In this document: positions 7,794-49,294 of the stretch, in pieces
How positions within the stretch are numbered: the stretch's first letter is position 1
Layout of the letters: every line of letters starts with the position of its first letter
Source: an uncultured delta proteobacterium
Lineage (GTDB): Bacteria > Myxococcota_A > Polyangia > Polyangiales > Polyangiaceae
DNA: 64,000 bases
Assembly (NCBI GenBank): GCA_963716725.1
Contig: CAVQUB010000006.1
Location: forward strand, 160,001-224,000
Direction of reading: 5' to 3'
Translations under genes and position numbers: made by a program
Notes under the pieces: generated by a model
Databases searched by the model: none
Seen by the model: the letters and a program-made list of their open reading frames with translations, nothing else
Told to the model about the DNA's origin: nothing

Positions 7794-7965
7794 TGGTGCG
7801 GCTTAATCGACAAGAGCGTGGCAGACAGCAGGGCATCGCACAAGCCTCCAGACGCTGCCGAGCGCCCCGCGGTCCCAGACCGCCCCGCGGGGCCGGCGGA
7901 GGGGTCCCGAAGGCCGGAGCGTGGGGGCTAGTTGGGGAGCCCCTGTGAGGGACTCCTGTACAACC

Positions 7966-8073
7966 CGGTAGTATCTTGTGTTCAGGCTTCCGAAAGTTCA
8001 GTGCCTTCGACCGCTTAGGTAATCTCGCCCAATCTGTCGTGGTTTTTTCTTGCCCCACCACAAGTGATTGGGG
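7966..8073. promoter_or_regulatory. Putative tandem NrdR boxes
   Basis: 16-mers at 7966, 8027 and 8058 partly match acaCwAtATaTwGtgt; spacings 61 and 31 bp; upstream of an RNR gene. Confidence 0.6.
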
Positions 8074-8279
8074 TAACAAGACCCTCCACCTACCGCGAGA
8101 GCTGTTCGTCGGTGCAGTCGGTCGGACCTACTATCCCCGGCGCATCCCCGAACGCACGTTCAGCTGAACCAGTCCGAGCGCAGTGGGGTTCCTTTTTTCT
8201 TGGCTTGATTGGGTGACGGGGCGGACGCCCAGTTAGCAGCGGACGAACGACGAGGTTGGACAACAGGGGGTCCTAGCGT

Positions 8280-8320
8280 CCTCGCTTCCCAGAGAGGCGG
8301 ACGGCGCGAGGCTTTTTTTT
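8280..8320 (+). terminator. Terminator-like hairpin in the nrdJ leader
   Basis: cctcgc...gcgagg followed by c and T8. Confidence 0.4.
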
Positions 8321-8388
8321 GCCCTGCGGGCGGACGGGTGCCGCGCGCGGGTCGAAGGCAATACATGCCGCAGATGAAGGAGCGAGGG

Positions 8389-11658
<3,270 letters not shown>

Positions 11659-11773
11659 CAGGAGCCCGGCCGAGGGGCCAAAACACCAGGCGGCCCTGAA
11701 AGCTCGGGGTCGCCTGATGCGTTTGCCCCAGAACAATCGTCCACCCGGTGGAATCCTGGTAGAAGTGAGCCCG

Positions 11774-12298
11774 ATGCTGAAGCAAGGCAAGCCCACCGCG
11801 CGAACGGCCGTGGTCGCAGGAGCAGCAATCGTGCTTGCGCTCCTGGCGTGCAAAAAGGAAAACAGCGACACGACCGCTGCAACCGCGACTGCGCTTCCGG
11901 CAGTGTCGGCCCCAACACCCGACCCGCCCAAAGATCCGGAGCCCACCGCCAGCGCCGAGCCCGAGAAGAAGGACGAACCCGCCGCCAAGGCGCCGGTGGT
12001 GAACGTGGTCAAGACCACGACCGACGCAGGTGCGACGGCGAAAGTCGACGCCTCCGTGCCCGACGCCGCCGCACCCGCGGCGAACACCGCGGCCGACGCC
12101 AAGGCCATCGAGGCCTGTTGCGCCAGCCTCGCTGCCGAGTCCAAGAAGCCGACTCCCCACAGCAACAAGTACAAGAGCGCGTCCGCCGTCTGCGGCGGCA
12201 TCGCCGCGCAGGTCAAGAAGGGAAACGCGAACGCGGCCTCGGCTCGGACCACGATCCGCGCGCAGCTGCAAGGCGTTCCCGTCCCCAGCGGTTGCTGA
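11774..12298 (+). CDS. Lipoprotein with Pro/Ala linker and Cys-containing C-terminal domain
   Basis: Lipobox LLAC; C-terminal ACC...C...PSGC. Confidence 0.8.
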   Translation: MLKQGKPTARTAVVAGAAIVLALLACKKENSDTTAATATALPAVSAPTPDPPKDPEPTASAEPEKKDEPAAKAPVVNVVKTTTDAGATAKVDASVPDAAAPAANTAADAKAIEACCASLAAESKKPTPHSNKYKSASAVCGGIAAQVKKGNANAASARTTIRAQLQGVPVPSGC

Positions 12299-12368
12299 CC
12301 CCGCCCCAGATCCAATAGTTTGCCCCTGACCCACGTCTGACTCGAATGCACCGTCTCTGGAGGACCCG

Positions 12369-12806
12369 ATGAAGAAGGCTTCGCAATCTGCAGCGCAAGC
12401 GTTGCTCACCCCCATCATGCTCGGCCTGATGGTGCCGGCGGCCTTGGCTCTCTACGCTGGGTGCAAGAAGGACGAGCCACCACCGCCCCTGCCCGTAGCG
12501 GCGCCCGAGGCGACGGCGAGCGCGCCCTTGGTGATCGAGGTCGAAGACGCTGGCGACGACGGCGACGCGGGCGACGCCGACGCGGACGCGAAGGTCGGCA
12601 AGTACGTGCCGGCGGCCAGCCTCAAGGCTTGTTGCGCTGCGCTCGCGCAGAACGCCGCCAGCGCGCCCCCGCCCACCAGCATCTACATGCTGCAAGCCGC
12701 CGCTGCCTGCAACGCCGCCGTTGCGCAGGGCAAAGACAAGGCGAGCGTCACGGGCATCGTGTCCGGTGCGCTCAAGGGCGCCGGCATGCCGGCCGCCTGC
12801 CGCTGA
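12369..12806 (+). CDS. Lipoprotein, apparent paralog of the upstream gene
   Basis: SD GGAGG; YAGC lipobox-like; ACC...C...PAAC. Confidence 0.8.
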   Translation: MKKASQSAAQALLTPIMLGLMVPAALALYAGCKKDEPPPPLPVAAPEATASAPLVIEVEDAGDDGDAGDADADAKVGKYVPAASLKACCAALAQNAASAPPPTSIYMLQAAAACNAAVAQGKDKASVTGIVSGALKGAGMPAACR

Positions 12807-12863
12807 TCCGGCTTCCCCATCCCCTGCTCCCTCCTCCGCTCCGCCACCGCCTCGCCACGACAA

Positions 12864-13108
12864 AGGCGCAGCGAACGCAGCGAACGCAGGGCACGCGGCC
12901 AAGAGTCTCTTCTGCTCTGAGCCAGAAATTCTCTGCGAACTCCGCGTTCCCCGCGCACTCCGCGCCTCTCGCCCCGCTGCCTCCCAGAAGAGGCGCAGCG
13001 AACGCAGCGAACGCAGGGCACGCGGCCAAGAGTCTCTTCTGCTCTGAGCCAGAAATTCTCTGCGAACTCCGCGTTCCCCGCGCACTCCGCGCCTCTCGCC
13101 CCGCTGCC
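12864..13108. repeat. Two identical 118-bp REP/MITE-like units in tandem
   Basis: 12864-12981 matches 12991-13108; each unit has imperfect inverted ends; intergenic between convergent genes. Confidence 0.9.
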
Positions 13109-31375: not shown

Positions 31376-31840
31376 CTAGCGCGCCGGCTCGATCCGATCC
31401 GCGTTGACCGTCTCGTCCCAGGCGGTCTCGTAACCCTCGTAGTGCACCAGGTAACGATCGGGTCCGGCGACGGCCACGATGGTCGCGATGTACTTCGACT
31501 CGCGCCACTTCACGCGCACGCGATCACCCGGCTTGTAGGGGGACGCGCCGGACGCAGGACCCGAGCCTTTGGGCGCGACCCCGCTGGCGCGCGCGACCTT
31601 CTCGGGCGGCGGCGGCGGGGCGACCGGACTGCTGATCCGCCCCTTGATGCGATCGAGGATCACGTCCTCGTCCCAGCGCGCGTCGAAGCCGTCGAAGTGA
31701 ACACGAAACCGCGCCGCGCCCTTCTTCTCGACGATGTACGCGGGGTAGTCCCGGCCCTCCCACTCGACCCACACGTACTCCCCGACTCGGTAAGGCTCCG
31801 TGCAGGCAGTGAGCAGGAGCGCGAGTACGAGCCAACGCAT
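31376..31840 (-). CDS. Lipoprotein with two Tudor-knot/chromo-barrel-like domains
   Basis: LTAC lipobox; two repeats containing VHFDGFDARWDE and VHYEGYETAWDE. Confidence 0.8.
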   Translation of the reverse strand: MRWLVLALLLTACTEPYRVGEYVWVEWEGRDYPAYIVEKKGAARFRVHFDGFDARWDEDVILDRIKGRISSPVAPPPPPEKVARASGVAPKGSGPASGASPYKPGDRVRVKWRESKYIATIVAVAGPDRYLVHYEGYETAWDETVNADRIEPAR

Positions 31841-37689: not shown

Positions 37690-38673
<984 letters not shown>

Positions 38674-38689
38674 CGACACCAAGCATCAC

Positions 38690-38720
38690 GCCCGCCGCGG
38701 ATCACCGGATCCGCGCGGGC
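38690..38720 (+). other. GC-rich hairpin between etfA and the tRNA
   Basis: gcccgccgcggatc-accg-gatccgcgcgggc; no U-tract. Confidence 0.55.
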
Positions 38721-38722
38721 AT

Positions 38723-38796
38723 CGGGGCGTAGCGCAGTTTGGTAGCGCGCACGGTTCGGGTCCGTGAGGTCGGCAGTTCGAATCTGCCCGCCCCGA
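38723..38796 (+). tRNA. tRNA-Pro(CGG), copy 1
   Basis: Acceptor stem cggggcg/cgccccg, anticodon arm cacgg-TTCGGGT-ccgtg, T-loop gttcgaatc; CCA not encoded. Confidence 0.95.
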
Positions 38797-38831
38797 CAAA
38801 ACCTGGGTTAAACGTCGAAGGGGAGGGAACC

Positions 38832-39014
38832 ATGGCGGAGCTGAAGAGCACCGAGCGCGGTCTCCTCATCGACATCAAGGAACTGGATCAGTTGCCTAGT
38901 TTGCGCAGCTCTCTGAGCGTCCCGCCGGCGAACATTCAGGCAGTGACGCATCCTCCCTCCGACGCGAAAGGCGGAGGCAACGTCAAGCGGCTCCTCGCCG
39001 CCATCCGGCGCTGA
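38832..39014 (+). CDS. Small hypothetical protein or gene remnant (60 aa)
   Basis: Strong SD GGGAGG before ATG GCG GAG. Confidence 0.45.
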   Translation: MAELKSTERGLLIDIKELDQLPSLRSSLSVPPANIQAVTHPPSDAKGGGNVKRLLAAIRR

Positions 39015-39019
39015 GTGCG

Positions 39020-40270
39020 TCAGCGCCGAGTCAACCCCGGACGGAACGAACGCTTGGAGCTGCGACGACGATATCGTCGCCACGCGAGCCACGCGCCGAC
39101 TGCGGGTAGCAGCGCCGCGGCGAGGATCACGACCCGCGCGAGAGGCAGGCGCGCCTGAGGGAGCGAGGCGCACGCCAGCTCGAAGCTCAGAAACCAGACC
39201 AAGCCGGCGATGAGCGCAGGCGCGAGGAGGAGCAAGGCCAGCTGTATCACGGTCCCTGGAACCCTCAGGAAGGTCTCGATTCCGAAGCGAAGCAGCCCTT
39301 CCCTCGAGAACGCCGTGAGCACGTCCACCACGGCCCTCGGTCCCGATTGCCCGCGCGGAAATGCGAGATGAACTTCATCCCAGCGGTCCGGTGAGAGCTT
39401 CGCCTTGAAGGCCCTGAGCCCGTGAAAATCGTAGAGTTCACTCGATGCGTCCCGGATGGCTCGGAGCCACCCGCTCACGTCGCCCGACAGCGGCGCGAGA
39501 CCGAGCGTGGCATAGGCAGCGTTCTCCTCGGCGACTGCCCGGAGCGCATGGTCGATGACCAACTCGACCGTTCCGTTGGGTGCGGTCGGATCCCGCAAGA
39601 AATCCTCCAAGAGCCAGCCGTTGCGCGCGTACACCGGGACCATGCCGAGAAACGCGACGATGCGCCCGTCTTGCTCGGCGACGAAGTAGCGGTGCTCCGC
39701 CACGAAGTGAAACGGGTGCACAGCCACGAGGAAGCCCATCGGCGCGAGAGTGAGCCTACTGCTCCAACGCTCGATGAGTCTCTCGATGTCACGCCGTCGA
39801 CTCCCGGGCGCGTCGCTGGTCTCGATGGCGTCCAGCCGTCGGACTTCTACTCCCTTGGCCCGGGCTCTCCTCAGCTGTTCGCGCAGACTCTTGGAGACAG
39901 GCCGCGAATCGGCCACTCGCCGCGGGTCCCAGACCGGCTGCTCCCCGATCAGCATCGACGCGAAGTCCACGCTTCGTAGAAAGCGGGGCTCGACGCCGAA
40001 GAAACACGCGCGTCGCCCGGCGTCGCGTGCCGCGCGTACGAATCGGCTCGCGCACATGGCCAAGCACTCCTCGGCGGCGATGGGCGCGCCGGCTGCGACC
40101 CAGGCCCCACCCGTGTCCACGTAGGCCACCGCGCCGCTCTGGTCGAACCAGTAGCAAAACCCTGGCTCTAGCACCTGAAACGAGGTCGCGTTCCAGCCGT
40201 GCGCGCGCAGCCGGTCGAGCACCTTGGCACGCTCTGGCTCGCGTTCCAGCGCAATCTCGGACTGGACCAC
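39020..40270 (-). CDS. DUF2156 / MprF-type aminoacyl-phosphatidylglycerol synthase domain protein
   Basis: WVAAGAP, LREQLRRARAKGV, GWLLEDFLRDPTAPNGTVE, LGLAPL, LYDFHGLRAFKAK; short C-terminal TM region. Confidence 0.85.
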   Translation of the reverse strand: MVQSEIALEREPERAKVLDRLRAHGWNATSFQVLEPGFCYWFDQSGAVAYVDTGGAWVAAGAPIAAEECLAMCASRFVRAARDAGRRACFFGVEPRFLRSVDFASMLIGEQPVWDPRRVADSRPVSKSLREQLRRARAKGVEVRRLDAIETSDAPGSRRRDIERLIERWSSRLTLAPMGFLVAVHPFHFVAEHRYFVAEQDGRIVAFLGMVPVYARNGWLLEDFLRDPTAPNGTVELVIDHALRAVAEENAAYATLGLAPLSGDVSGWLRAIRDASSELYDFHGLRAFKAKLSPDRWDEVHLAFPRGQSGPRAVVDVLTAFSREGLLRFGIETFLRVPGTVIQLALLLLAPALIAGLVWFLSFELACASLPQARLPLARVVILAAALLPAVGAWLAWRRYRRRSSKRSFRPGLTRR

Positions 40271-40485
40271 TGGGCAGAGCTATACCGCAAGCGGAGAGCT
40301 GTCCACCCCCCGCTCAGCGCCCGGGAATATCGCTGAACTCGAAGGTCACCCGAACCTCCCGCCCGCCCGCGGTGCGCGTCTTCTCCGCTGTCGAGCGCGG
40401 AGTGCGAGTCTCGGGCACCCGCTCGGACGTTCAACGTCATGCCTGCTTGACGCGCTCGCGCGCGCGAAGTTCGCTTCGCTCGCCC

Positions 40486-41325
40486 ATGGCCAGCAGGAAG
40501 AAGGAGGAGCCGATCCCGCTCACCGAAGCCTTGGTGTCCGAGGTCGAAGCTCGGGTTCGCGCGGCGCGCTTCGTTGCGAACAGGCAACTCGTGGGCCGCA
40601 TGCTGTCGCGGCACGACGAGCTGCTGCTGATCGAAAAGCTCGTGACGCGCGGGCTCGAGCGGACGCCGAAGGGTCTGCGCGCGCCCCTCGCGGACCAAGT
40701 CGCAGCCGCGGTCGCGGGCACGAGCCCCATCCCGCTCTCCGCCCTCCCGAAGTGCGTGAGCGGCTCCACCGCAGCTGAGGTCAAACGCACGGCGCTTCAG
40801 CTCGTCGATGCGGGCAGCCTCGCGTTGGTCGCGGGCTCGCGCGTGGACGCAATCACGGTGAAGGGAGCGCACCTGCTCGATCCCGACGAGGTGGCCGCGA
40901 TCCGGGATTTGAGCAAGCGCTTGACCAAACTCGTCGCGCGGCTGCGCTCGCGAAAGGGAACTCCATCGAAGACCCTGGCGCGATCCGAGGCGCAAACCCT
41001 GTTCGGGCCCGTGCTGGAGATGCTGGCCGCGCCCAACGCCGCCGCGGGGATTGCGACCGCGCGCGTCCTCGAAACCTTGGCCGAACTCGAACGGTCGCGC
41101 GGTCGCTCCGTGTTCGTCCCGGATCTGGTTCGTGCGCTGGGAACGACGCAGGCGCCTGCGCCCGCCCACCAGGCGCTGCTCGCGCTCGCCCGCGCGGGCC
41201 GGGTGGAGCTTCGCCCCGAGAGCGGCGTCGGAGCGCTGTCGCCGGCGGATCGCGCGCTGTGCCCGGCCGACGCCCAAGGCCTCGTGATTTCTTATGCCCG
41301 GGTGATTTCGGGAGAGACCGCATGA
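40486..41325 (+). CDS. Hypothetical protein with probable C-terminal winged-helix-like domain (operon gene 1)
   Basis: 279 aa; VFVPDLVRAL...HQALLALARAGRVELRP; stop overlaps next start (ATGA). Confidence 0.7.
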   Translation: MASRKKEEPIPLTEALVSEVEARVRAARFVANRQLVGRMLSRHDELLLIEKLVTRGLERTPKGLRAPLADQVAAAVAGTSPIPLSALPKCVSGSTAAEVKRTALQLVDAGSLALVAGSRVDAITVKGAHLLDPDEVAAIRDLSKRLTKLVARLRSRKGTPSKTLARSEAQTLFGPVLEMLAAPNAAAGIATARVLETLAELERSRGRSVFVPDLVRALGTTQAPAPAHQALLALARAGRVELRPESGVGALSPADRALCPADAQGLVISYARVISGETA

Positions 41326-43337
41326 GGGGCCCCTTCGACTTTGAACACGCCGATCCCTGGGGCAGCGACGTCGTCGATGTCGCGTCGCTCAACGCCCACG
41401 TGAGCGACGCTATCCTCTCACGGATCGAGGCCGTGCGCCGCGCAGCTCCGCTCGGTCCGGCGGAGCTGCGGTCGAGCACACTCTTGGCGTTGGGTCCGGC
41501 GGGGTCCGGCAAGACCCACCTCTTCGTGCGGGTGCGCCGCCGGTTGGGACCGCGTGCGGCCTTCGTGCTCGTTCGCCCCGAGATCGGCATCGAAGCGACG
41601 CCCCGGCACGTCCTCACCCAGATCGTCGACTCGCTGCAACACGCTGCCTCGGGCACCACGGACCGACAGTTGGATGTGATCGCAGCGTCCATGCTCGCGG
41701 CGGTGTCGGGAGAGCGGATCGGACCACACGTGTTGCTGGAGCAGCTCCGCCAACGGGACGAACGGCTGCGCGAAGATCTGATTGAGCGGGTCACCGCTCA
41801 CCTCGAGGGCTTGTACTCCGAGGTTTGGCCCGACTACCTGGAGCGCCTCCTCCGCGCACCGTTCTTGCCGGCACCCGACCGCAGGGCCGCCAACGCCTGG
41901 CTCGCCGGGCGCGAGTTGAACGACGTGCAGCTCAGCCGCCTCGGCGGTGGAGCGAGCCTCACCGACTCGGACGTCCTGCCGGCGCTACGAACACTGGCCA
42001 TCGTCGCCGCGCACGGCGCTCCCATCGTGCTCGTGTTCGACCAACTCGAGAACCTGGTCACCGCGGATCGGCAGTCTTCCCGGATCTCGGCGCATGGCAA
42101 CCTGGTGAGTGAGCTGCACGACACCGTCCGCGGCCTGGTCGTGGTCCAGCTCGCCCTCGACGCCGAGTGGGATCGCAACATCCGCCCAAAGCTGGCGGCT
42201 TCCCATCGCTCGCGCGTCGAAGCCAAGCTCCTCGAGCTCTCGCTCCCGACGCCGGATCAGCGCGAAGAGCTGGTGCGCGTGTGGCTCGCTCGCCTCCCGT
42301 CGGTGGATCCGCAAGAACCGTTCCCCTGGCCGTTCACCAGGGCGCAGCTCGAGGCCTGGCGCGCTGCCACCGTGATGACACCACGCATGCTGATGATCGC
42401 GTGCCGCGAGGGCTTCGAGCCGGCGCTTCGTCCGATCAACACGGCGATCTCGGCAGCAGCGGCCCCGGCCTCCGCCGGCGTCAATGTCGGTGATCGCCTG
42501 GCTGATCTCTGGGCGCTGCACCTCGAGCGCGCACGCAACGAGCTCCAGTCCGTCGCCGCCGAGGGCCGCGGCACCGATGCGGAGCGCCTGGCGAGCGCGC
42601 TGGTCGTCGCGGCGGATCTCGCCGAACTCGACCCGTCGACCACCACCGACCGGATCACGCGCACGGTCCGGCTGGGCAAGTCGGACCGCGAAATTCGCCT
42701 GGTACAGCACGCCCATCCTCGCTCTGTCGCCGCGGCGCTCCAGCACACTCTGGCGCTCCAGCACCCCACTCGCGCGGTCGTCCTTCGTGAACACGACCTG
42801 GCGTTCCCACCGACGTGGATCAAGGTCCTCGAGCATTCGCACGAGCTGACCACGCACGGTGTCCCGCTGATCTGGCTCGCCTTCGATGATGCGGCGCGAC
42901 TCGTCGCGCTCCACGACTTTCTCGCGGCGGGACGCTCCCAAGATCTCGCTGGTCCTGACGGGCGCCCGCTCGACTTCGCGACGGTAGAAGGTTGGGTGAA
43001 AGGCAGCGTCGATTGGCAGAGCTGGCCCGTGGTGCGATCGGTCGTGCTCGGGATTGCCGACGACGACGTGGATCTGGATCGCGCGCGTGCGCCCGAAGCT
43101 GCCGCAGCTCCGCTGCGGGTGCCGGACGCAGACTCCGGGTCCGGTGCGCGTCCGGGCCCCTCCCTGGCCGTGCTTCGTCGCCTGCGCGTCGCGAGTGTCG
43201 CGCGGATACTGCGCGAAGTGCGCCGCGTCGACGCGCGTGCCACCGCCACGAGCGTGGCCCATGAGCTGAGGCAGGCAGGTCCGGCAGTGCGCTGGTACGG
43301 TCGACGCTTGTGCGCCCTCACGGAGCGTGAGCCGTGA
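41322..43337 (+). CDS. AAA+-type P-loop ATPase with uncharacterised C-terminal half (operon gene 2)
   Basis: Walker A GPAGSGKT, Walker B IVLVFDQLE, sensor-II-like TPRML. Confidence 0.85.
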   Translation: MRGPFDFEHADPWGSDVVDVASLNAHVSDAILSRIEAVRRAAPLGPAELRSSTLLALGPAGSGKTHLFVRVRRRLGPRAAFVLVRPEIGIEATPRHVLTQIVDSLQHAASGTTDRQLDVIAASMLAAVSGERIGPHVLLEQLRQRDERLREDLIERVTAHLEGLYSEVWPDYLERLLRAPFLPAPDRRAANAWLAGRELNDVQLSRLGGGASLTDSDVLPALRTLAIVAAHGAPIVLVFDQLENLVTADRQSSRISAHGNLVSELHDTVRGLVVVQLALDAEWDRNIRPKLAASHRSRVEAKLLELSLPTPDQREELVRVWLARLPSVDPQEPFPWPFTRAQLEAWRAATVMTPRMLMIACREGFEPALRPINTAISAAAAPASAGVNVGDRLADLWALHLERARNELQSVAAEGRGTDAERLASALVVAADLAELDPSTTTDRITRTVRLGKSDREIRLVQHAHPRSVAAALQHTLALQHPTRAVVLREHDLAFPPTWIKVLEHSHELTTHGVPLIWLAFDDAARLVALHDFLAAGRSQDLAGPDGRPLDFATVEGWVKGSVDWQSWPVVRSVVLGIADDDVDLDRARAPEAAAAPLRVPDADSGSGARPGPSLAVLRRLRVASVARILREVRRVDARATATSVAHELRQAGPAVRWYGRRLCALTEREP

Positions 43338-45319
43338 CCGCGCTGACGGTCACCGAGGTCCGCAACGCGCTGCGGTGCCCGCGGGTCTTCGCCCTGGGGC
43401 GGCGCTTCTCGAAGCGGGTGGTCTTTCCGGTCGGCTCCTCCGCGCTCGGCTCGGCCTTCCACCGCATCGCCGATCGCTTCGCCACCAGCACGTCACACCT
43501 GCCGAAGCGCTTCGGAGCCCTGCTCACCTCCGCGCCGGTGGATGAGATCAGCGACGCGCTCTGCGGGGTGTTGCTCCGTCATCTCGTCGACGAGCTCGAC
43601 CGGACTCCCGCCTACGCGTCGATGCCCGCCGAGGTGGACGATCTCGCGGAGGCCCTTCGCTCGTACGCGGGCTACCTCGCGCAACGGATCGCGCGCCGGC
43701 CGGGCGACCTGGCCGAGGTGCTTCGGCGGTTCTTGCACGACGCGGAGGTCTCGGTGCGCTGCGAGCTGTCGACGTCGGCGGGGCCGGTGGAGCTCTCGGG
43801 TCGGATCGACGCGATCCATGCGCCCGACGAGCACTCGTACGAGGTCGTGGAATACAAGCTCACCGACGAGTCGACGGAGGAGCTCGACCGGGCTCAGGTC
43901 GCGCTCTACCGGCACATGCTCCAGCAGGACAAAGCGGCAGTGCCGATCATCCTGCGCTTCGGACCGGGGCTCGTGACCACGCGACTCGAGCCCCAGGCGG
44001 CGGACGCCTGGGTCGAACGCGAGCTACTGCCCCTGCTCGGAGCCATGGTGACCTGGGTGGCGAGCCCGGAGCGCGCGCCGGCGACGAAGCGCACCGACCT
44101 GTGTCCTGCCTGCCCGCTCCGCGCCGAGTGCGTCGCCCTCTATCGCGACGCCGTTCCACCTCGCGACGATCCGCCCGCGAACGCCTGTCGTCCCCGACCC
44201 AGCCCGCAAGGCGAGGTCGCGTTGCCGGATCGGGACCAGCGAGGCTCTCCACCCAGCAGGCGCCCGGCGGCAGATCCGTCAGCGCTCGCGGAGGCCACTC
44301 GCCTCGTCGATCTGGTCGTCCGCCTCTACGCTGATCAAGGTGTCGCGGCCGCCGTGCGCAAGACCCCGCGCGTGGGCTCGCGCCTCATCCGCATCGAGCT
44401 GACCGCTAGCCGCGGGAGCATCAGGGATCTCGACCGTGGAAGCGCCGACGTGCTCCACCATCTGGAAGCCGATCACGCCGTCCGGGCGAGCTACGGTCCC
44501 GAAGGAGCGCGACGGGTGATCGACGCGCAGCGCTCGGCGCCGAGCACGGTGCGCCTGGCGCCGCTACTCGAGCGGTGCCGGGAGTGGCTGCGGGCTCGTC
44601 CGGGCCGCTTCATTTTGGGTGAAGACGTCGATGGCGAGCCGCTGCGCGCCGATTTGGGCGAGCCCACCGCGTGTCACCTGCTGATCGGCGGCACGACGGG
44701 GAGCGGGAAGTCCGTCTTGCTCAAGTCGATAGCCGCTGGCCTCGCCGAATACCAACCCCCAGCGGCGATCCAACTCACCCTGATCGATCCGAAGCGCGTG
44801 ACGTTCACCGGCGTCGAGGCCGCGCTCGGCGGCCACCTGGCCCGTCCCGTGTGCTTCGACGCGAACGAGACGGTCGCGATACTCCACGACCTCGTCACCG
44901 AGATGGAGGACCGTTACGAACGCTTCGCTGCGCTGCGCGTCGAGACCATCGATGACCACAATGCGGCATCCGCCCCGTGCGACGTCCTTCCCCGACACGT
45001 GCTGATCATCGACGAGTTCCAGGATCTGCTCGCTACCAAGGAGACCAAGGAGGACTTCCTGGGCTCCGTGCAGCGTCTCGGCGCGAAGGCGCGCGCGGCC
45101 GGCATCCACCTAGTACTCGCGACCCAGCACCCCGATCGAAAGACCGTGCCCGCCGCCATCAAGGTCAACCTGACAGGCAAGGTCGCGCTCAAGGTGCACC
45201 AGGCCACGGATTCGCTCGTGGTGTTGGGCGCGCGCGGGGCAGAGACGCTGCTGGGCAACGGCGATCTGCTCGCGGATCTGGGCCGAGGGATCGTGCGTGC
45301 GCAGGGCCCACTGCCCTGA
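43334..45319 (+). CDS. PD-(D/E)XK (RecB/Cas4/AddB-like) nuclease fused to FtsK/SpoIIIE-type ATPase (operon gene 3)
   Basis: RCP, GSAFH, GRID, VVEYK, QVALY, CPACPLRAEC; then HLLIGGTTGSGKS, IDPK, IIDEFQDL, ARAAGIHLVLATQHP, GAETLLGNGD. Confidence 0.9.
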   Translation: MTALTVTEVRNALRCPRVFALGRRFSKRVVFPVGSSALGSAFHRIADRFATSTSHLPKRFGALLTSAPVDEISDALCGVLLRHLVDELDRTPAYASMPAEVDDLAEALRSYAGYLAQRIARRPGDLAEVLRRFLHDAEVSVRCELSTSAGPVELSGRIDAIHAPDEHSYEVVEYKLTDESTEELDRAQVALYRHMLQQDKAAVPIILRFGPGLVTTRLEPQAADAWVERELLPLLGAMVTWVASPERAPATKRTDLCPACPLRAECVALYRDAVPPRDDPPANACRPRPSPQGEVALPDRDQRGSPPSRRPAADPSALAEATRLVDLVVRLYADQGVAAAVRKTPRVGSRLIRIELTASRGSIRDLDRGSADVLHHLEADHAVRASYGPEGARRVIDAQRSAPSTVRLAPLLERCREWLRARPGRFILGEDVDGEPLRADLGEPTACHLLIGGTTGSGKSVLLKSIAAGLAEYQPPAAIQLTLIDPKRVTFTGVEAALGGHLARPVCFDANETVAILHDLVTEMEDRYERFAALRVETIDDHNAASAPCDVLPRHVLIIDEFQDLLATKETKEDFLGSVQRLGAKARAAGIHLVLATQHPDRKTVPAAIKVNLTGKVALKVHQATDSLVVLGARGAETLLGNGDLLADLGRGIVRAQGPLP

Positions 45320-45390
45320 GCAAGTCGCGCGGGGCTCGGAGGCGGCGTGCGTCGGGCACCGGACGCGGCGTGCTATCTTCTCCCGGAGCC

Positions 45391-45969
45391 ATGGTCCTCG
45401 GCGCGCCCCACCACCGGCACACGTTTCGCGACTACCTCCATGTCGAGGAGATGAGTGCGGTCAAGCACGAGTATTTGGCGGGAGAGATCTTCGCCATGGC
45501 CGGGGGCACACCGGAGCATGCCGCTCTCAGCGCCGCGTTCCTGACGCTCCTCGGTCCGCAACTGCTCGGCAGCAAGTGCCGTTCCTACTCGGCCGACCTT
45601 CGCCTCCGCGTTCCCGCCACCGGGCTCGCGACCTACCCCGATGCCGCCATCGTCTGCGGCGATCTCGAGCTCGATCCCGAATCTTCAACCCACGTCACCA
45701 ACCCCAAGGTTGTCGTCGAAGTGCTCAGCCCGAGCACGGAGGAGTACGACCGCGGCGAGAAGCGTGAGCACTACCAGCGCCTCGCTTCGCTCGCACAGTA
45801 CGTGCTGGTCGCACAAACGCGGGTGAGAGTCGAGGTTTTCTCCCTCGCCGACGACGGATCATGGACGCATACCGTCCATTTTGCGGGGGAGCTCGTGGAG
45901 CTTCGGTCAGTGGGGTGTCGCTTCGCTGTCGACGATCTCTACGCCGCTGCCGGTGTGCGCCTCGACTGA
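45391..45969 (+). CDS. Uma2 family (DUF820) endonuclease
   Basis: KHEYLAGEIFAMAGGTPEH, YPDAAIVC, VVEVLSPSTEEYDRGEK..Y. Confidence 0.92.
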   Translation: MVLGAPHHRHTFRDYLHVEEMSAVKHEYLAGEIFAMAGGTPEHAALSAAFLTLLGPQLLGSKCRSYSADLRLRVPATGLATYPDAAIVCGDLELDPESSTHVTNPKVVVEVLSPSTEEYDRGEKREHYQRLASLAQYVLVAQTRVRVEVFSLADDGSWTHTVHFAGELVELRSVGCRFAVDDLYAAAGVRLD

Positions 45970-45988
45970 ACTCCGGTCACGTGACGGG

Positions 45989-46023
45989 CTACGACCACTT
46001 TCGTCGCATCGCGCGGCTACGCT
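45989..46023 (+). promoter_or_regulatory. WYL-activator (DriD-like) operator followed by a -10-like element
   Basis: CTACGAC-N7-GTCGCAT at 45989-46009; TAcgcT at 46018-46023. Confidence 0.6.
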
Positions 46024-46039
46024 CGGCCTCGAGTCCCCC

Positions 46040-46357
46040 GTGCCCGACGCTTTCCTCCGACTGCTGCTGCTGCTCAGCGAAATACCGGTGGCACCCCAGC
46101 GCATCGATACCTGCACGCTCGCGCAGCGACTCGAAGCCCAGGGGGTCCGCGTGACGCGCCGCACCCTACAGCGCGATCTGGAGCGACTCTCGCGCCAGCT
46201 CCCGTTGACCCGCCACGACGACGCCAAGCCCTACGCTTGGGCCTGGCTCGAGTCCGACCTGCGGCCGGGCCGCGGCAAGCAGACGGAGACCCTGCGGGAG
46301 GTGGCGGCCCGCGCGGCCTCACACATCAGGCGGTCGAGCGGCTGTTCGCCCGACTGA
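46040..46357 (+). CDS. Stand-alone winged-HTH similar to the N-terminus of the adjacent WYL protein
   Basis: TLAQRLEAQGVRVTRRTLQRDLERLS...KPYAWAW versus TLQRRLEEEGITVTARSVQRDLERLS...KPYQWSW. Confidence 0.7.
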   Translation: MPDAFLRLLLLLSEIPVAPQRIDTCTLAQRLEAQGVRVTRRTLQRDLERLSRQLPLTRHDDAKPYAWAWLESDLRPGRGKQTETLREVAARAASHIRRSSGCSPD

Positions 46358-46403
46358 TGCCCGTCCTGTCCCAACCACGCGGACATCGCCTAAGGTCGGT
46401 GGC

Positions 46404-47462
46404 GTGCCTCGTTCCGGATCCGACGTCGAGACGCTCCACCGCCTCTGGTCGTTGCTCCGCCACGTGCCGCGGTCACCGCGGCGGGCCGACACGGTGACGC
46501 TGCAGCGCCGGCTCGAAGAAGAAGGCATCACCGTCACGGCGCGCAGTGTGCAGCGCGATCTCGAGCGGCTCTCGGCGCGATTCATCACCCTGCAGTGCGA
46601 TCGACGGTCGAAGCCCTACCAGTGGTCGTGGGACGGCGACGCGCCGCTGGTCGAGATCCCCGGCATGGGCGTGCCGGCGGCGGTGACCTTCGAGCTGGTG
46701 CGCGCCCACCTGCACGACGCCCTGCCCCGATCGACGCTGGCGAGCCTGGAGCCGCACTTCGCCCGTGCGCGAGAGGTGCTCGCTCGGCACACGAGCACGC
46801 CCCTTGCGCGTTGGCTCGCGAAGGTGCGAGTCGTCCCCCGCGGCTACCCGCTCGCCCCGCCCAACGTGCCGCCTCACGTGCTCGACGTGGTCTACGGCGC
46901 GTTGCTCGAAGAGCGCCGCTTCCGAGCCTTGTACAAGAAACACGGGGCGAAGGAGGAAAAGGAGTACGTCGTCAGCCCGCTGGGCCTGGCCGCCCGCAAC
47001 GGCATCCTGAGCCTGGTGTGCACGTTCTGGGACTACGACAACGTGAACCACATGCTGCTCCATCGCATGCAGCGGGCCGAGCTCCTCGACGAGCCGCTGC
47101 ACCGACCCCGCGGCTTCGATCTCGACGCGCACCTCGCGAAAGGCGGCGTCGGCTTCGCGCGCGGCGAGCCCATCCGCCTGCGCGCTCGCGCCCACTACGA
47201 CGTCGCCGTCGTGCTGCGCGAGACGCCCATGGGCAAGGACCAATCCCTGTCGCCCGACGACGAGCAGCACGAGCTGCTCGAAGTGACGGTGCCCGACACC
47301 ATGGAACTTCGCGGCTGGCTGCTCAGCTACGGCCCGATGATCGAGGTCCTCGAGCCTGCCGCGCTGCGCGAGGACTTGGTCCGGACCATCACGATGACGG
47401 CAGAGACCTATGCCAATCCCAGGGCCAAGCCGGCACGGACCGCCCGCAAGCCGCGCCCCTAG
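46404..47462 (+). CDS. wHTH-WYL-WCX transcriptional regulator
   Basis: N-terminal HTH (RSVQRDL), WYL-type VVSPLGL..LSLVC..LHRM, WCX-type GWLLSYGPMIEVLEPAALRE. Confidence 0.92.
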   Translation: MPRSGSDVETLHRLWSLLRHVPRSPRRADTVTLQRRLEEEGITVTARSVQRDLERLSARFITLQCDRRSKPYQWSWDGDAPLVEIPGMGVPAAVTFELVRAHLHDALPRSTLASLEPHFARAREVLARHTSTPLARWLAKVRVVPRGYPLAPPNVPPHVLDVVYGALLEERRFRALYKKHGAKEEKEYVVSPLGLAARNGILSLVCTFWDYDNVNHMLLHRMQRAELLDEPLHRPRGFDLDAHLAKGGVGFARGEPIRLRARAHYDVAVVLRETPMGKDQSLSPDDEQHELLEVTVPDTMELRGWLLSYGPMIEVLEPAALREDLVRTITMTAETYANPRAKPARTARKPRP

Positions 47463-47510
47463 CCGGAAGCCGTTTGTCCCCGGGATTTCGCGCAATTGTC
47501 ACCGCGCTGC

Positions 47511-47539
47511 TTGACATAGTGCTCGCCATTGTCCATGTT
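47511..47539 (+). promoter_or_regulatory. Sigma70-like promoter of tRNA copy 2
   Basis: TTGACA-17 bp-CATGTT. Confidence 0.55.
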
Positions 47540-47570
47540 CGCGCGCCCTTCCGGTTCTGGCCGGAGGTTT

Positions 47571-47644
47571 CGGGGCGTAGCGCAGTTTGGTAGCGCGCAC
47601 GGTTCGGGTCCGTGAGGTCGGCAGTTCGAATCTGCCCGCCCCGA
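47571..47644 (+). tRNA. tRNA-Pro(CGG), copy 2
   Basis: Identical to 38723-38796. Confidence 0.95.
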
Positions 47645-47866
47645 CAAAACCCCGAGTTGAGCGTCGCGGGACACGGCAGCGAGTTCCGACGACGGTTAGC
47701 TCGTTACCACTCTGTTGCCAGTTGCTGCGCCGAGCCTGCCGACGGCGTCGTGCCACAATATTGCCACCCACGCCGCCTCGGAACTCGGGAGCTGTTTCCC
47801 GCGGTTCCGGCCCCCCCGCCCGGGCCCGCTCATGCTACGCTTCCCGATCGGCCTCCGGAGCCCCAC

Positions 47867-48433: not shown

Positions 48434-49294
48434 ATGCCCGACGTGCGCCGGATCTTCGCCCTCCTGTTCGTGCTCGCCCTCGCCCTGACCTGCAAGCCGG
48501 CGCGGGCCGCCGAGGAGACACCGGACTGGGACCGCGCCCGGGTGGCGGCCGACCTCCGGGCGGGCAAGCCCCTGGTCGTGCACGTGACGGTGGCGCTCTG
48601 CTCGAACCGCCAAATCGACTGCGGCAGCGGCATCGCCGGTCGCGCCGGGAACCTGAGCCACAACGTATACTGGGGCGCGATCTTCGGGGCACGACGCTTT
48701 CTCGAGATGAAGTCCAGCGGCTGGGAGCGCGTGAGTCTGGGTAAGATCGATGACACCGTGCTCGAGCGCGCCGTGTACCGGCGGCGAGTGCCTGCCAAGC
48801 GCTGGGACATCGATCGGAAGGACCCCATCGAGCAGCTGGTAGTGCTCGATGCCGTGCACGGCGATCGCATCGACCAGGCCGTCACCGGCTTCTGGAAAGG
48901 CGCGACCGGCGGCGAGAAGCTGACGATCCGAGATGGTGAACGCCAGCGCGACGTGCGCGTGCACGTCGCGGGATACGTCGGGCACAACCGGCTGATGGAC
49001 GGCGTCGATCTGCCCGAGCAAGGCGCGTCCAGCGGCGACGCCGCCATCCCCTCCTTCGTACTCGCGTGTTACTCGGAGCAGTACTTCGGCAAGAAGCTGC
49101 GCCGCGCGGGCTCACGACCCTTGGTCATGACCAAGCAGCTGATGGCGCCCGAGGGCTACTTGCTGCACGCCGTGCTCACTGGCATCGGGGACGGCAAGAG
49201 TTCGAAGCAGATCCGACTCGGCGCCGTGCAGTCCTACGCAAAGTGGCAGAAGCTGTCCCACGGCACTGCTTCGTGGATCTTTGCCGGCAAGTGA
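48434..49294 (+). CDS. Hypothetical exported protein
   Basis: Signal peptide; NVYWGA, GYVGHNRLMD, FVLACYS motifs. Confidence 0.75.
   Translation: MPDVRRIFALLFVLALALTCKPARAAEETPDWDRARVAADLRAGKPLVVHVTVALCSNRQIDCGSGIAGRAGNLSHNVYWGAIFGARRFLEMKSSGWERVSLGKIDDTVLERAVYRRRVPAKRWDIDRKDPIEQLVVLDAVHGDRIDQAVTGFWKGATGGEKLTIRDGERQRDVRVHVAGYVGHNRLMDGVDLPEQGASSGDAAIPSFVLACYSEQYFGKKLRRAGSRPLVMTKQLMAPEGYLLHAVLTGIGDGKSSKQIRLGAVQSYAKWQKLSHGTASWIFAGK

Follow-up and report, generated by a model that had tools for sequence, protein, structure and literature searches.

What kind of machine is encoded where a protein of no named family, an AAA+ ATPase and a nuclease with an attached FtsK motor lie in overlapping reading frames, and do the regulatory genes downstream belong to it? 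The question is raised by a 64,000-nucleotide (nt) stretch of DNA from an uncultured member of the Polyangiaceae (assembly GCA_963716725.1, contig CAVQUB010000006.1, positions 160,001 to 224,000 of the forward strand), which we refer to as the window. The three genes, called A, B and C here, are followed on the same strand by a Uma2-family gene, a small winged helix-turn-helix (wHTH) gene and a WYL regulator gene (Table 1), in a genome of the Polyangia type with a high GC content (~69%). A, B and C are one operon and a conserved unit, and this unit is a self-contained cassette that changes its genomic site. It very probably belongs to a class of operons predicted from comparative genomics, the Orc/CDC6-coupled HerA/FtsK capture systems, and the reading of its function that we favour is defence against invading DNA.

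Coupling and conservation of genes A, B and C

In the window, A and B overlap within the tetranucleotide ATGA (41322-41325), and B and C overlap within GTGA (43334-43337), with a GGAG-type purine run before each. Both overlaps had been pointed out in an earlier, sequence-only reading of the window, which took the three coupled genes for one machine composed of a DNA-binding protein, an AAA+ loader or sensor and a translocating nuclease. The overlaps are present in the sequence and recur as 4-nt overlaps in homologous loci (20 of 34 A-B gene pairs and 22 of 34 B-C pairs, counts that rest on our own gene caller). A profile of B retrieved 64 loci from reference genomes, 59 of which are Myxococcota-type, counting one Holophagaceae metagenome-assembled genome (L049) that also has the A-B-C layout. 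In a tblastn-type survey of these loci, the order A-B-C is kept in 43 of the 59, and contig ends truncate most of the remaining loci. The co-occurrence of the three genes, which the sequence-only reading had named as a check, agrees with its picture of a single machine.

Gene A is present in 55 of the 59 Myxococcota-type loci, and all four misses fall at contig ends. Both halves of C are found in 47 loci, and the nuclease half alone in three, where 361-1217 nt of contig remain after B. C is absent from eight loci, and contig ends explain four of these absences. Loci L024, L058, L064 and L066 contain A and B without a C-like gene despite 1.4-7.9 kb of downstream sequence. They resemble A-B pairs devoid of an effector, and the gene called after A-B is on the opposite strand in L058 and L066. 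A single locus (L038) has lost the nuclease part of C. The copies in L038 and L039 appear to be decayed, with the match to B ending at ~560 in the former and ~408 in the latter, and with the N-terminal part of C's nuclease missing.

The cassette also exists in a remote version, found in four planctomycete loci. The same three-gene layout with an overlapping start is seen in L072 (Planctomycetaceae; 7886-12909), where an upstream protein of 372 amino acids (aa) precedes homologs of B and C that share 27 and 28% identity with the window proteins, respectively. The L072 nuclease keeps the E-x-K and QxxxY motifs, and the four-cysteine cluster described below is lacking in the planctomycete relatives, L072 included.

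Within its own lineage the cassette is distributed patchily. Sampling of the class gave B in 6 of 151 genomes, with only four of the matches near full length; eight genomes from other genera of the family gave no match. B is present in two of five congeners, with B identities of 76 and 73%, each time at a different site, so that three genomes of one genus hold the cassette at three different sites. Nucleotide similarity among the three genus copies is confined to ~40443-45307, which corresponds to A-B-C only, and neither congener copy lies near a tRNA gene. The site occupied in the window, from EtfA to the gene at 48434, lacks A, B, C, Uma2 and the upstream LPG_synthase_C (LPG) gene in all five congeners. 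Across the 64 loci the flanks share no synteny, close relatives excepted, and a repeat search around A-B-C found no terminal inverted or direct repeats apart from the tRNA repeat described below. With B as query, tblastn matched none of 72,556 plasmid and none of 50,697 phage records. Isolates of Polyangium and Sorangium that have the cassette are represented by L035, L036, L044 and L048.

Structure prediction points to a direct contact between two of the subunits. Models of the A-B complex score 0.74, 0.71 and 0.74 against 0.00 for the best control, at least 97% of the contacts are common to the runs, and the partner reaches a predicted local distance difference test (pLDDT) value of at least 78. 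Of 80 solved complexes, 58 attain the mark for this score, as do 2 of 110 mismatched pairs, a calibration that is only rough here because our own alignments were used for the A-B model. The predicted interface is formed by residues 206-272 of A and by residues 57-60 (in the P-loop), 243-246, 279-286, 303-308, 348-353 and 538-553 of B. The model supports a mode of assembly in which A would bind B through its C-terminal winged helix at B's nucleotide-binding face.

Elsewhere the subunits are linked by shared frames or fusions. A single open frame in the congener G153 spans A and B without an intervening stop (L093 8882-9061; ...ARVIPRGHMRGPFDFEH...). Two members of the B family are fused to motors: P0152 (951 aa) contains an FtsK motor and P0255 (1436 aa) a HerA/TrwB-type motor.

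Domain architecture of the three subunits

A is the fastest-evolving subunit, with a mean column identity of 37%, compared with 47% for B and 60% for C. No family was assigned to it in Pfam, PADLOC or NCBIfam scans, and the 35 relatives collected by an A profile include none that carries a name. The AlphaFold2 model (pLDDT 90.7) consists of three winged helices, at residues ~14-65, 66-128 and 189-276, linked by long helices. The stretch assigned to the interface with B is also the most conserved part of the protein, and its C-terminal motif, ELRPESG...LCP...LS, is the predicted contact. A search of PDB sequences returned a designed coiled coil as the best match (E 0.0013), which we judged to be spurious. 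FokI, SspB and DndG are absent from the top 50 matches of a structure search, a result that does not exclude a likeness to them.

B begins with the ATPase domain, continues with an α/β domain (~390-575) and finishes with a winged-helix-like end (612-668). Pfam reports only AAA_22 and AAA_16, both below threshold, and the best match among PDB sequences (E 0.17) is no real relative. The Walker A motif GPAGSGKTH (58-66) does not vary across 30 sequences; in the Walker B region (239-244), B has FDQLEN. The middle domain is built from a helix, three strands, a helix and a strand, which is compatible with the core of a restriction endonuclease (REase) fold; the conserved acidic/Lys triad is not seen. 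A comparison of this domain with the C nuclease by hhalign gave a probability of 0.1%, and an Atlas search provided no lead, its best score (0.89) belonging to a cluster labelled 'hypothetical protein' with no common Pfam family. The C-terminal segment is predicted as helix, strand, helix, helix, strand, strand at pLDDT values of at least 90, and the structure searches barely cover it. The B family is modest in size: its profile matches 1770 representatives at E ≤0.001, 977 at 1e-10 and 251 at 1e-30 (of 1.84 billion), counted as clusters at 50% identity. Where the sources name these proteins, they are mostly called 'hypothetical protein', the remainder being generic ATPases.

C combines an N-terminal nuclease (PDDEXK_1, 1.1e-18, residues 4-266) with a C-terminal motor (FtsK_SpoIIIE, 8.6e-30, residues 412-600), and the motor matches solved FtsK motors at E 8e-60. 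Among 35 sequences, E173, K175, Q188, Y192, C257, C260, C266 and the Walker A segment G453-S460 are invariant, and D159, C15 and D560 are nearly so. The nuclease therefore contains D...E-x-K and QxxxY motifs together with four conserved cysteines, one near the N-terminus (C15) and three at the domain's C-terminal end (C257, C260 and C266). Four cysteines placed in this way around these motifs are the Cas4/AddB pattern of iron–sulphur (Fe-S) nucleases, and we infer from the pattern that C may hold an Fe-S cluster. The stretch between nuclease and motor corresponds to FtsK-alpha. Pfam detects FtsK_alpha (1.1e-7) in a planctomycete homolog that can be aligned over its full length and does not report it in the window's own C at E 0.01. 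C ends at the motor. With no membrane anchor and no gamma domain to read sequence, it would depend on A and B for targeting.

Relation to described systems and proposed function

The sequence-only reading had regarded this combination of proteins as undescribed. That part of it cannot be kept, since operons with these parts are predicted in a comparative-genomic study (Nucleic Acids Research 2024; PMC10853773), whose available text describes 'Orc/CDC6-coupled HerA/FtsK capture systems'. The parts given there are an Orc/CDC6 ATPase with an inactive REase domain inserted before a C-terminal wHTH, an active REase and a HerA/FtsK motor. One subset has, ahead of the motor, an FtsK-alpha domain taken over from cellular FtsK, and some operons add a rapidly evolving protein of two to four wHTH domains. 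The loci are termed 'mobile gene neighborhoods', and interception of invader DNA is proposed, a view restated in the accessible part of PMC12839542. The portion of PMC10853773 available to us gives the class no system name and contains no experiment; the literature found on the architecture, in the available texts of these two papers, is comparative genomics, with no experimental test.

We consider it very probable that A-B-C belongs to this class. B is the AAA+ ATPase of the Orc/CDC6 clade, and C supplies both the active REase-fold nuclease, with its invariant catalytic residues, and the FtsK motor. A corresponds to the separate, fast-evolving multi-wHTH protein. The neighbourhood is variable and mobile in the window cassette's family too, as seen from the 64 loci without shared flanks and the three sites in one genus, and a modification enzyme is likewise lacking. 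The identity of B's middle domain as an inactive REase is not confirmed by the searches described above. Relative to the available text of PMC10853773, our analysis adds the predicted A-B interface at B's ATP site, the single A-B frame in a congener, the occurrence of three insertion sites in one genus and a WYL neighbour specific to that genus.

In keeping with the expectation of the sequence-only reading, no system catalogued in PADLOC matches the cassette. A has no PADLOC match, B has only a weak P-loop match (mad8, 9e-4), and the matches of C are limited to Cas4 models (1.5e-8, within a range of 1e-7 to 1e-8) and to that end of SspH which holds the FtsK motor (4.2e-58; 1477-1751 of the 1766 profile positions). 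In the accessible part of PMC8092258, SspFGH is a tested three-gene restriction module that damages unmodified DNA and blocks phage replication. Like A-B-C, it comprises a Walker-A ATPase, a protein whose family is unknown and a third protein with an FtsK motor at its end. The SspH models are, however, ~1560-1770 positions long, compared with 661 residues for C, which matches only their end, and A and B have no SspF or SspG match at E 0.01. Genes that write phosphorothioate marks (sspBCD) are present neither between the tRNA genes of the window nor among 115 of 236 flank proteins, from 25 loci, that we scanned. DndC has no match in the cassette's own genome (84% complete), and the same search for DUF4007 is uninformative because its control matched in no genome.

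Other known systems and proteins also differ from the cassette. DndFGH (DptFGH) is a stand-alone counter-invader system, but A, B and C have no Dpt or Dnd match in NCBIfam or PADLOC at E 0.01; DndF is described as a P-loop kinase rather than an Orc/Cdc6 AAA+ protein, and DndH has ~900 extra residues of other domains. The alpha-beta motor of C is close to that of cellular FtsK/SpoIIIE, with intact Walker A and B motifs. In contrast to those proteins, C lacks the N-terminal membrane domain, the long linker and the gamma winged helix that reads KOPS (FtsK-orienting polar sequences), carries a nuclease at its N-terminus and is patchily distributed. The nuclease resembles the Cas4/AddB type in its motifs and cysteine pattern, but it is fused to a ring translocase, and it lies outside any cas1, cas2 or CRISPR context; the genes called in 31376-58000 contain no cas domain.

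As the sequence-only reading had it, and as we also judge best, the cassette has a role in defence. We think it somewhat probable that A-B-C is a module that restricts invading DNA without a modification partner, a reading that draws, among other points, on the match to the predicted class and on how close C's motor is to that of SspH, which belongs to a system tested against phage (available text of PMC8092258). Defence or toxin-antitoxin genes near the cassette in 6 of 25 sampled loci, and the ThsA-like SIR2 gene at the tRNA-Pro locus of G154, speak for it as well. In the proposed mechanism, A, the rapidly diverging triple winged-helix protein, would recognise a DNA feature and, with the conserved winged helix at its C-terminus, dock onto B at the face that binds nucleotide. 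B, as an Orc/Cdc6-type ATP switch, would then recruit or load C onto the bound DNA. Its assignment as a loader draws on the natural fusions of B to FtsK and HerA motors and, by analogy, on the roles of Orc/Cdc6-clade proteins elsewhere. C would form an FtsK-type ring, pump double-stranded DNA and cut it with its putatively active, Cas4/RecB-type Fe-S nuclease. In this genus only, the WYL protein may control expression of the cassette. Self DNA could be spared through a dependence on free DNA ends, by analogy with RecB-family nucleases, or through the specificity of A.

A more detailed version of this scheme is tentative, and we would sooner doubt it than adopt it. It is a 'load-and-shred' machine in which A sits at the ATP face of B (57-60 and 279-286), binding of foreign DNA by A gates the nucleotide state of B, B in turn loads C, and the WYL protein exerts control in this genus. 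Were it true, B would be the first initiator-type AAA+ protein to act as a loader for a ring nuclease in immunity. The class is known from comparative genomics alone, and a member in culturable relatives makes the 'HerA/FtsK capture' idea testable. Concrete mutants suggest themselves from the conserved catalytic residues, from the predicted contact of A with B, and from the fusions of A to B and of B to motors. Two wider questions follow: how a nuclease-translocase without a modification partner distinguishes foreign DNA from its own, and what role an Orc/Cdc6-type ATPase has in immunity. The family also concerns genome annotation, where the B profile reaches ~250 clusters (50% identity) at E 1e-30 or better.

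Several points weigh against the defence reading and the scheme built on it. The class to which we assign the cassette comes without an experiment in the literature that we found. The four loci that have A-B and no C suggest that A-B may function without the nuclease. The score of the A-B complex is the prediction model's own confidence and not a measurement, and the single A-B frame in G153 could be a natural fusion or an assembly error in a draft genome. At Walker B, B has DQ instead of DE, and it may act as a slow switch and not as a motor. No modification gene is part of the cassette, nor is a means of telling self from foreign DNA evident; the scanned flank proteins include one generic methyltransferase. 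B occurs on none of the plasmid or phage records searched. Most flank genes are ordinary chromosomal ones (kinases, transporters and TonB receptors), and a specific defence or toxin-antitoxin neighbour lies within three genes in only 6 of the 25 sampled loci, a figure that has no background rate.

The six loci with such neighbours contain AbiEi with PDC-S70, a ZorD/DpdE-like SNF2 helicase, Uma2, a type IV restriction enzyme (6e-225), DarG (3e-134), and WYL with Uma2, respectively. We set aside, as generic, the PADLOC matches given by kinases, ABC ATPases and sigma-54 activators.

A different view is that the cassette serves a mobile element, in replication, Streptomyces TraB-type transfer, partition or packaging, and that the window copy is a remnant between tRNA repeats. 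FtsK-family pumps do move DNA in conjugation, and C matches a solved conjugative coupling protein (1.4e-32) and, weakly and far under the cut-off, plasmid TraB (8.2e-8). The position between identical tRNA-Pro copies, an integrase fragment beside the second copy in the congener G155 and the 'mobile gene neighborhoods' of PMC10853773 (available text) point the same way. We nevertheless hold this view to be unlikely. Beside A-B-C, where the flanks differ at nearly every locus, there is no conserved gene for an integrase, a relaxase, a replication origin protein or a capsid; the congener copies have no nearby tRNA gene, terminal repeats around A-B-C are lacking, and B is unmatched in plasmid and phage records. 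A Cas4/RecB-type nuclease with a conserved active site also fits degradation better than transfer. It is very unlikely, in our estimate, that the whole string of A, B, C, Uma2, wHTH and WYL forms one obligate system. Outside the window these neighbours are rarely or never found with the cassette (Uma2 in one of 64 loci, WYL in one and the small wHTH in none), the G153 cassette has none of them, a WYL gene (74% identity) is present together with a wHTH gene at the tRNA-Pro locus of G153, where A-B-C is absent, and the similarity among the genus copies stops at the ends of A-B-C. These observations outweigh the shared strand and short gaps of the six genes, the arrangement in the congener G152, where a WYL gene follows C directly and a small wHTH precedes A, and the general association of WYL regulators with defence operons.

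Two further explanations would place the cassette outside defence altogether. One is modelled on cyanobacterial RcaD/RcaG: in the accessible part of PMC2799420, RcaD binds a promoter and the ATPase RcaG encoded downstream may aid binding, so A and B might be a DNA-binding regulator and its helper ATPase that control expression or chromatin, with C secondary. The chance of this appears slimmer still. A is not linked to RcaD, its profile relatives being nameless, and the nuclease and motor sites of C are strongly conserved in the lineage; the patchy distribution, at different sites in related genomes, is unlike that of a fixed regulator. The four A-B loci without C would suit such a regulator, as would a cyanobacterial B-like protein (L073) that is a remote homolog of B (hhalign 96.6%) and whose downstream genes are not C-like. 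The other explanation, a housekeeping machine for DNA repair or segregation, in the form of an additional FtsK or of an analogue of HerA-NurA end resection with fused parts, strikes us as the least probable of those considered. The combination of ring ATPase and nuclease does resemble HerA-NurA, and the motor is very close to that of cellular FtsK, but C lacks the membrane anchor and gamma domain, B is present in few genomes of the class and in two of the five congeners at different sites, and a separate FtsK-like open frame of 872 aa lies on another contig of the same genome. Restriction of invading DNA thus remains our favoured reading of A-B-C.

Neighbouring genes and the tRNA-Pro hotspot

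The features of the locus are collected in Table 1. Their coordinates come from an independent gene call based on GC content at third codon positions (GC3), which agrees with the coordinates of the sequence-only reading. That reading had also described the segment as bounded by tRNA genes and free of methyltransferase, cas1/cas2 and pglZ genes. Identical tRNA-Pro(CGG) copies do lie on both sides, each within one arm of a direct repeat that is perfect over 82 nt, and the variable segment is bounded by these arms. The genes called within 31376-58000 gave no match to methyltransferase, cas1/cas2 or pglZ domains. A scan of 38600-47800 gave no promoter-like site and four terminator-like sites versus 3.4 expected, which is uninformative.

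Table 1. Features of the A-B-C locus, in window coordinates
Feature	Coordinates	Strand	Description
tRNA-Pro(CGG) copy 1	gene 38723-38797; left repeat arm 38722-38803	+	
LPG_synthase_C gene	39020-40270	-	stand-alone (MprF/LysX C-terminal, DUF2156); upstream of A
Gene A	40486-41325	+	279 aa; triple winged-helix; predicted DNA-recognition subunit
Gene B	41322-43337	+	Orc/Cdc6-like AAA+ ATPase; predicted ATP-dependent switch/loader
Gene C	43334-45319	+	661 aa; Cas4/RecB-family PD-(D/E)xK nuclease, FtsK-alpha-like linker and FtsK beta motor; predicted translocating effector
Uma2-family PD-(D/E)xK protein	45391-45969	+	Pfam Uma2 4.9e-32; neighbour outside cassette
Small stand-alone wHTH	46040-46357	+	truncated paralog of the WYL regulator's N-terminal HTH; neighbour
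WYL-WCX regulator	46404-47462	+	Pfam WYL 1.2e-10, WCX 7e-15
tRNA-Pro(CGG) copy 2	gene 47571-47645; right repeat arm 47570-47651	+	

The genes downstream of C had been counted as parts of the system in the sequence-only reading, and here the survey leads to a different assignment. Uma2, detected by tblastn in a single one of the 64 loci and absent from both congener copies, is a bystander; a Pfam scan of the flanks adds two more Uma2 neighbours. The wHTH and WYL regulators are not conserved family-wide either. WYL regulators are known companions of defence operons, and in this genus a WYL gene adjoins the cassette in two of three copies, those of the window and of G152. The G152 WYL-WCX gene (61% identity) lies on the same strand, 85 nt after C, with a small wHTH gene similar to that of the window before A. 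Because this second copy has WYL directly after C, WYL may be a lineage-specific regulator; it is at most a genus-level add-on that may regulate the cassette there, not a family-wide component. This inconstant adjacency also sets the cassette apart from operons regulated by WYL proteins of the BrxR/CapW type. The small wHTH protein aligns with the WYL protein by BLASTP at 52% identity over 64 aa (E 2e-16), and small wHTH genes accompany the WYL genes in G152 and G153 as well.

The tRNA-Pro(CGG) pair marks a variable hotspot in the genus (window and L086-L090), with copies 328 to 8848 nt apart. Two copies occur in four of the five congeners, at spacings of 328 to 6367 nt, and other cargo lies between the copies or after them. 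The cargo varies by genome and includes fasciclin, YkuD and PurT genes, an integrase fragment and a ThsA-like SIR2 protein. The integrase fragment (L087 11025-11480) is found in G155, the only congener that has one there, and the ThsA-like gene (L088 2278-3897; PADLOC ThsA 1.4e-28) follows the second tRNA-Pro copy in G154. We considered and rejected a tRNA-integrated island or intact integrative element: there is no integrase between the repeats, the repeat spans the whole tRNA gene, and congeners also have two copies.

The LPG_synthase_C gene upstream of A has a hydrophobic tail and a low coding-bias score that resembles those of A and B. It is probably separate acquired cargo, given its absence from all 64 related loci (tblastn) and from the tRNA-Pro locus of the congeners.

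Other genes near the cassette in related genomes, and one in the window, are recorded here as observations. In the syntenic loci L019 and L023, genes for a Ro60/TROVE-vWA protein and an HNH endonuclease lie directly upstream of A. Ahead of the G153 cassette (L093 6034-7670) lie genes for a DUF2779 protein and for a protein with an ARPP-1 domain (PF20208, 3e-69), both from poorly understood families. On the minus strand of the window, the gene at 31376-31840 encodes a 154-aa protein with a Tudor-knot/chromodomain-like match (PF11717, 5e-12) and a weaker MSL3 chromo-like match, a type of domain known mainly from eukaryotic chromatin proteins.

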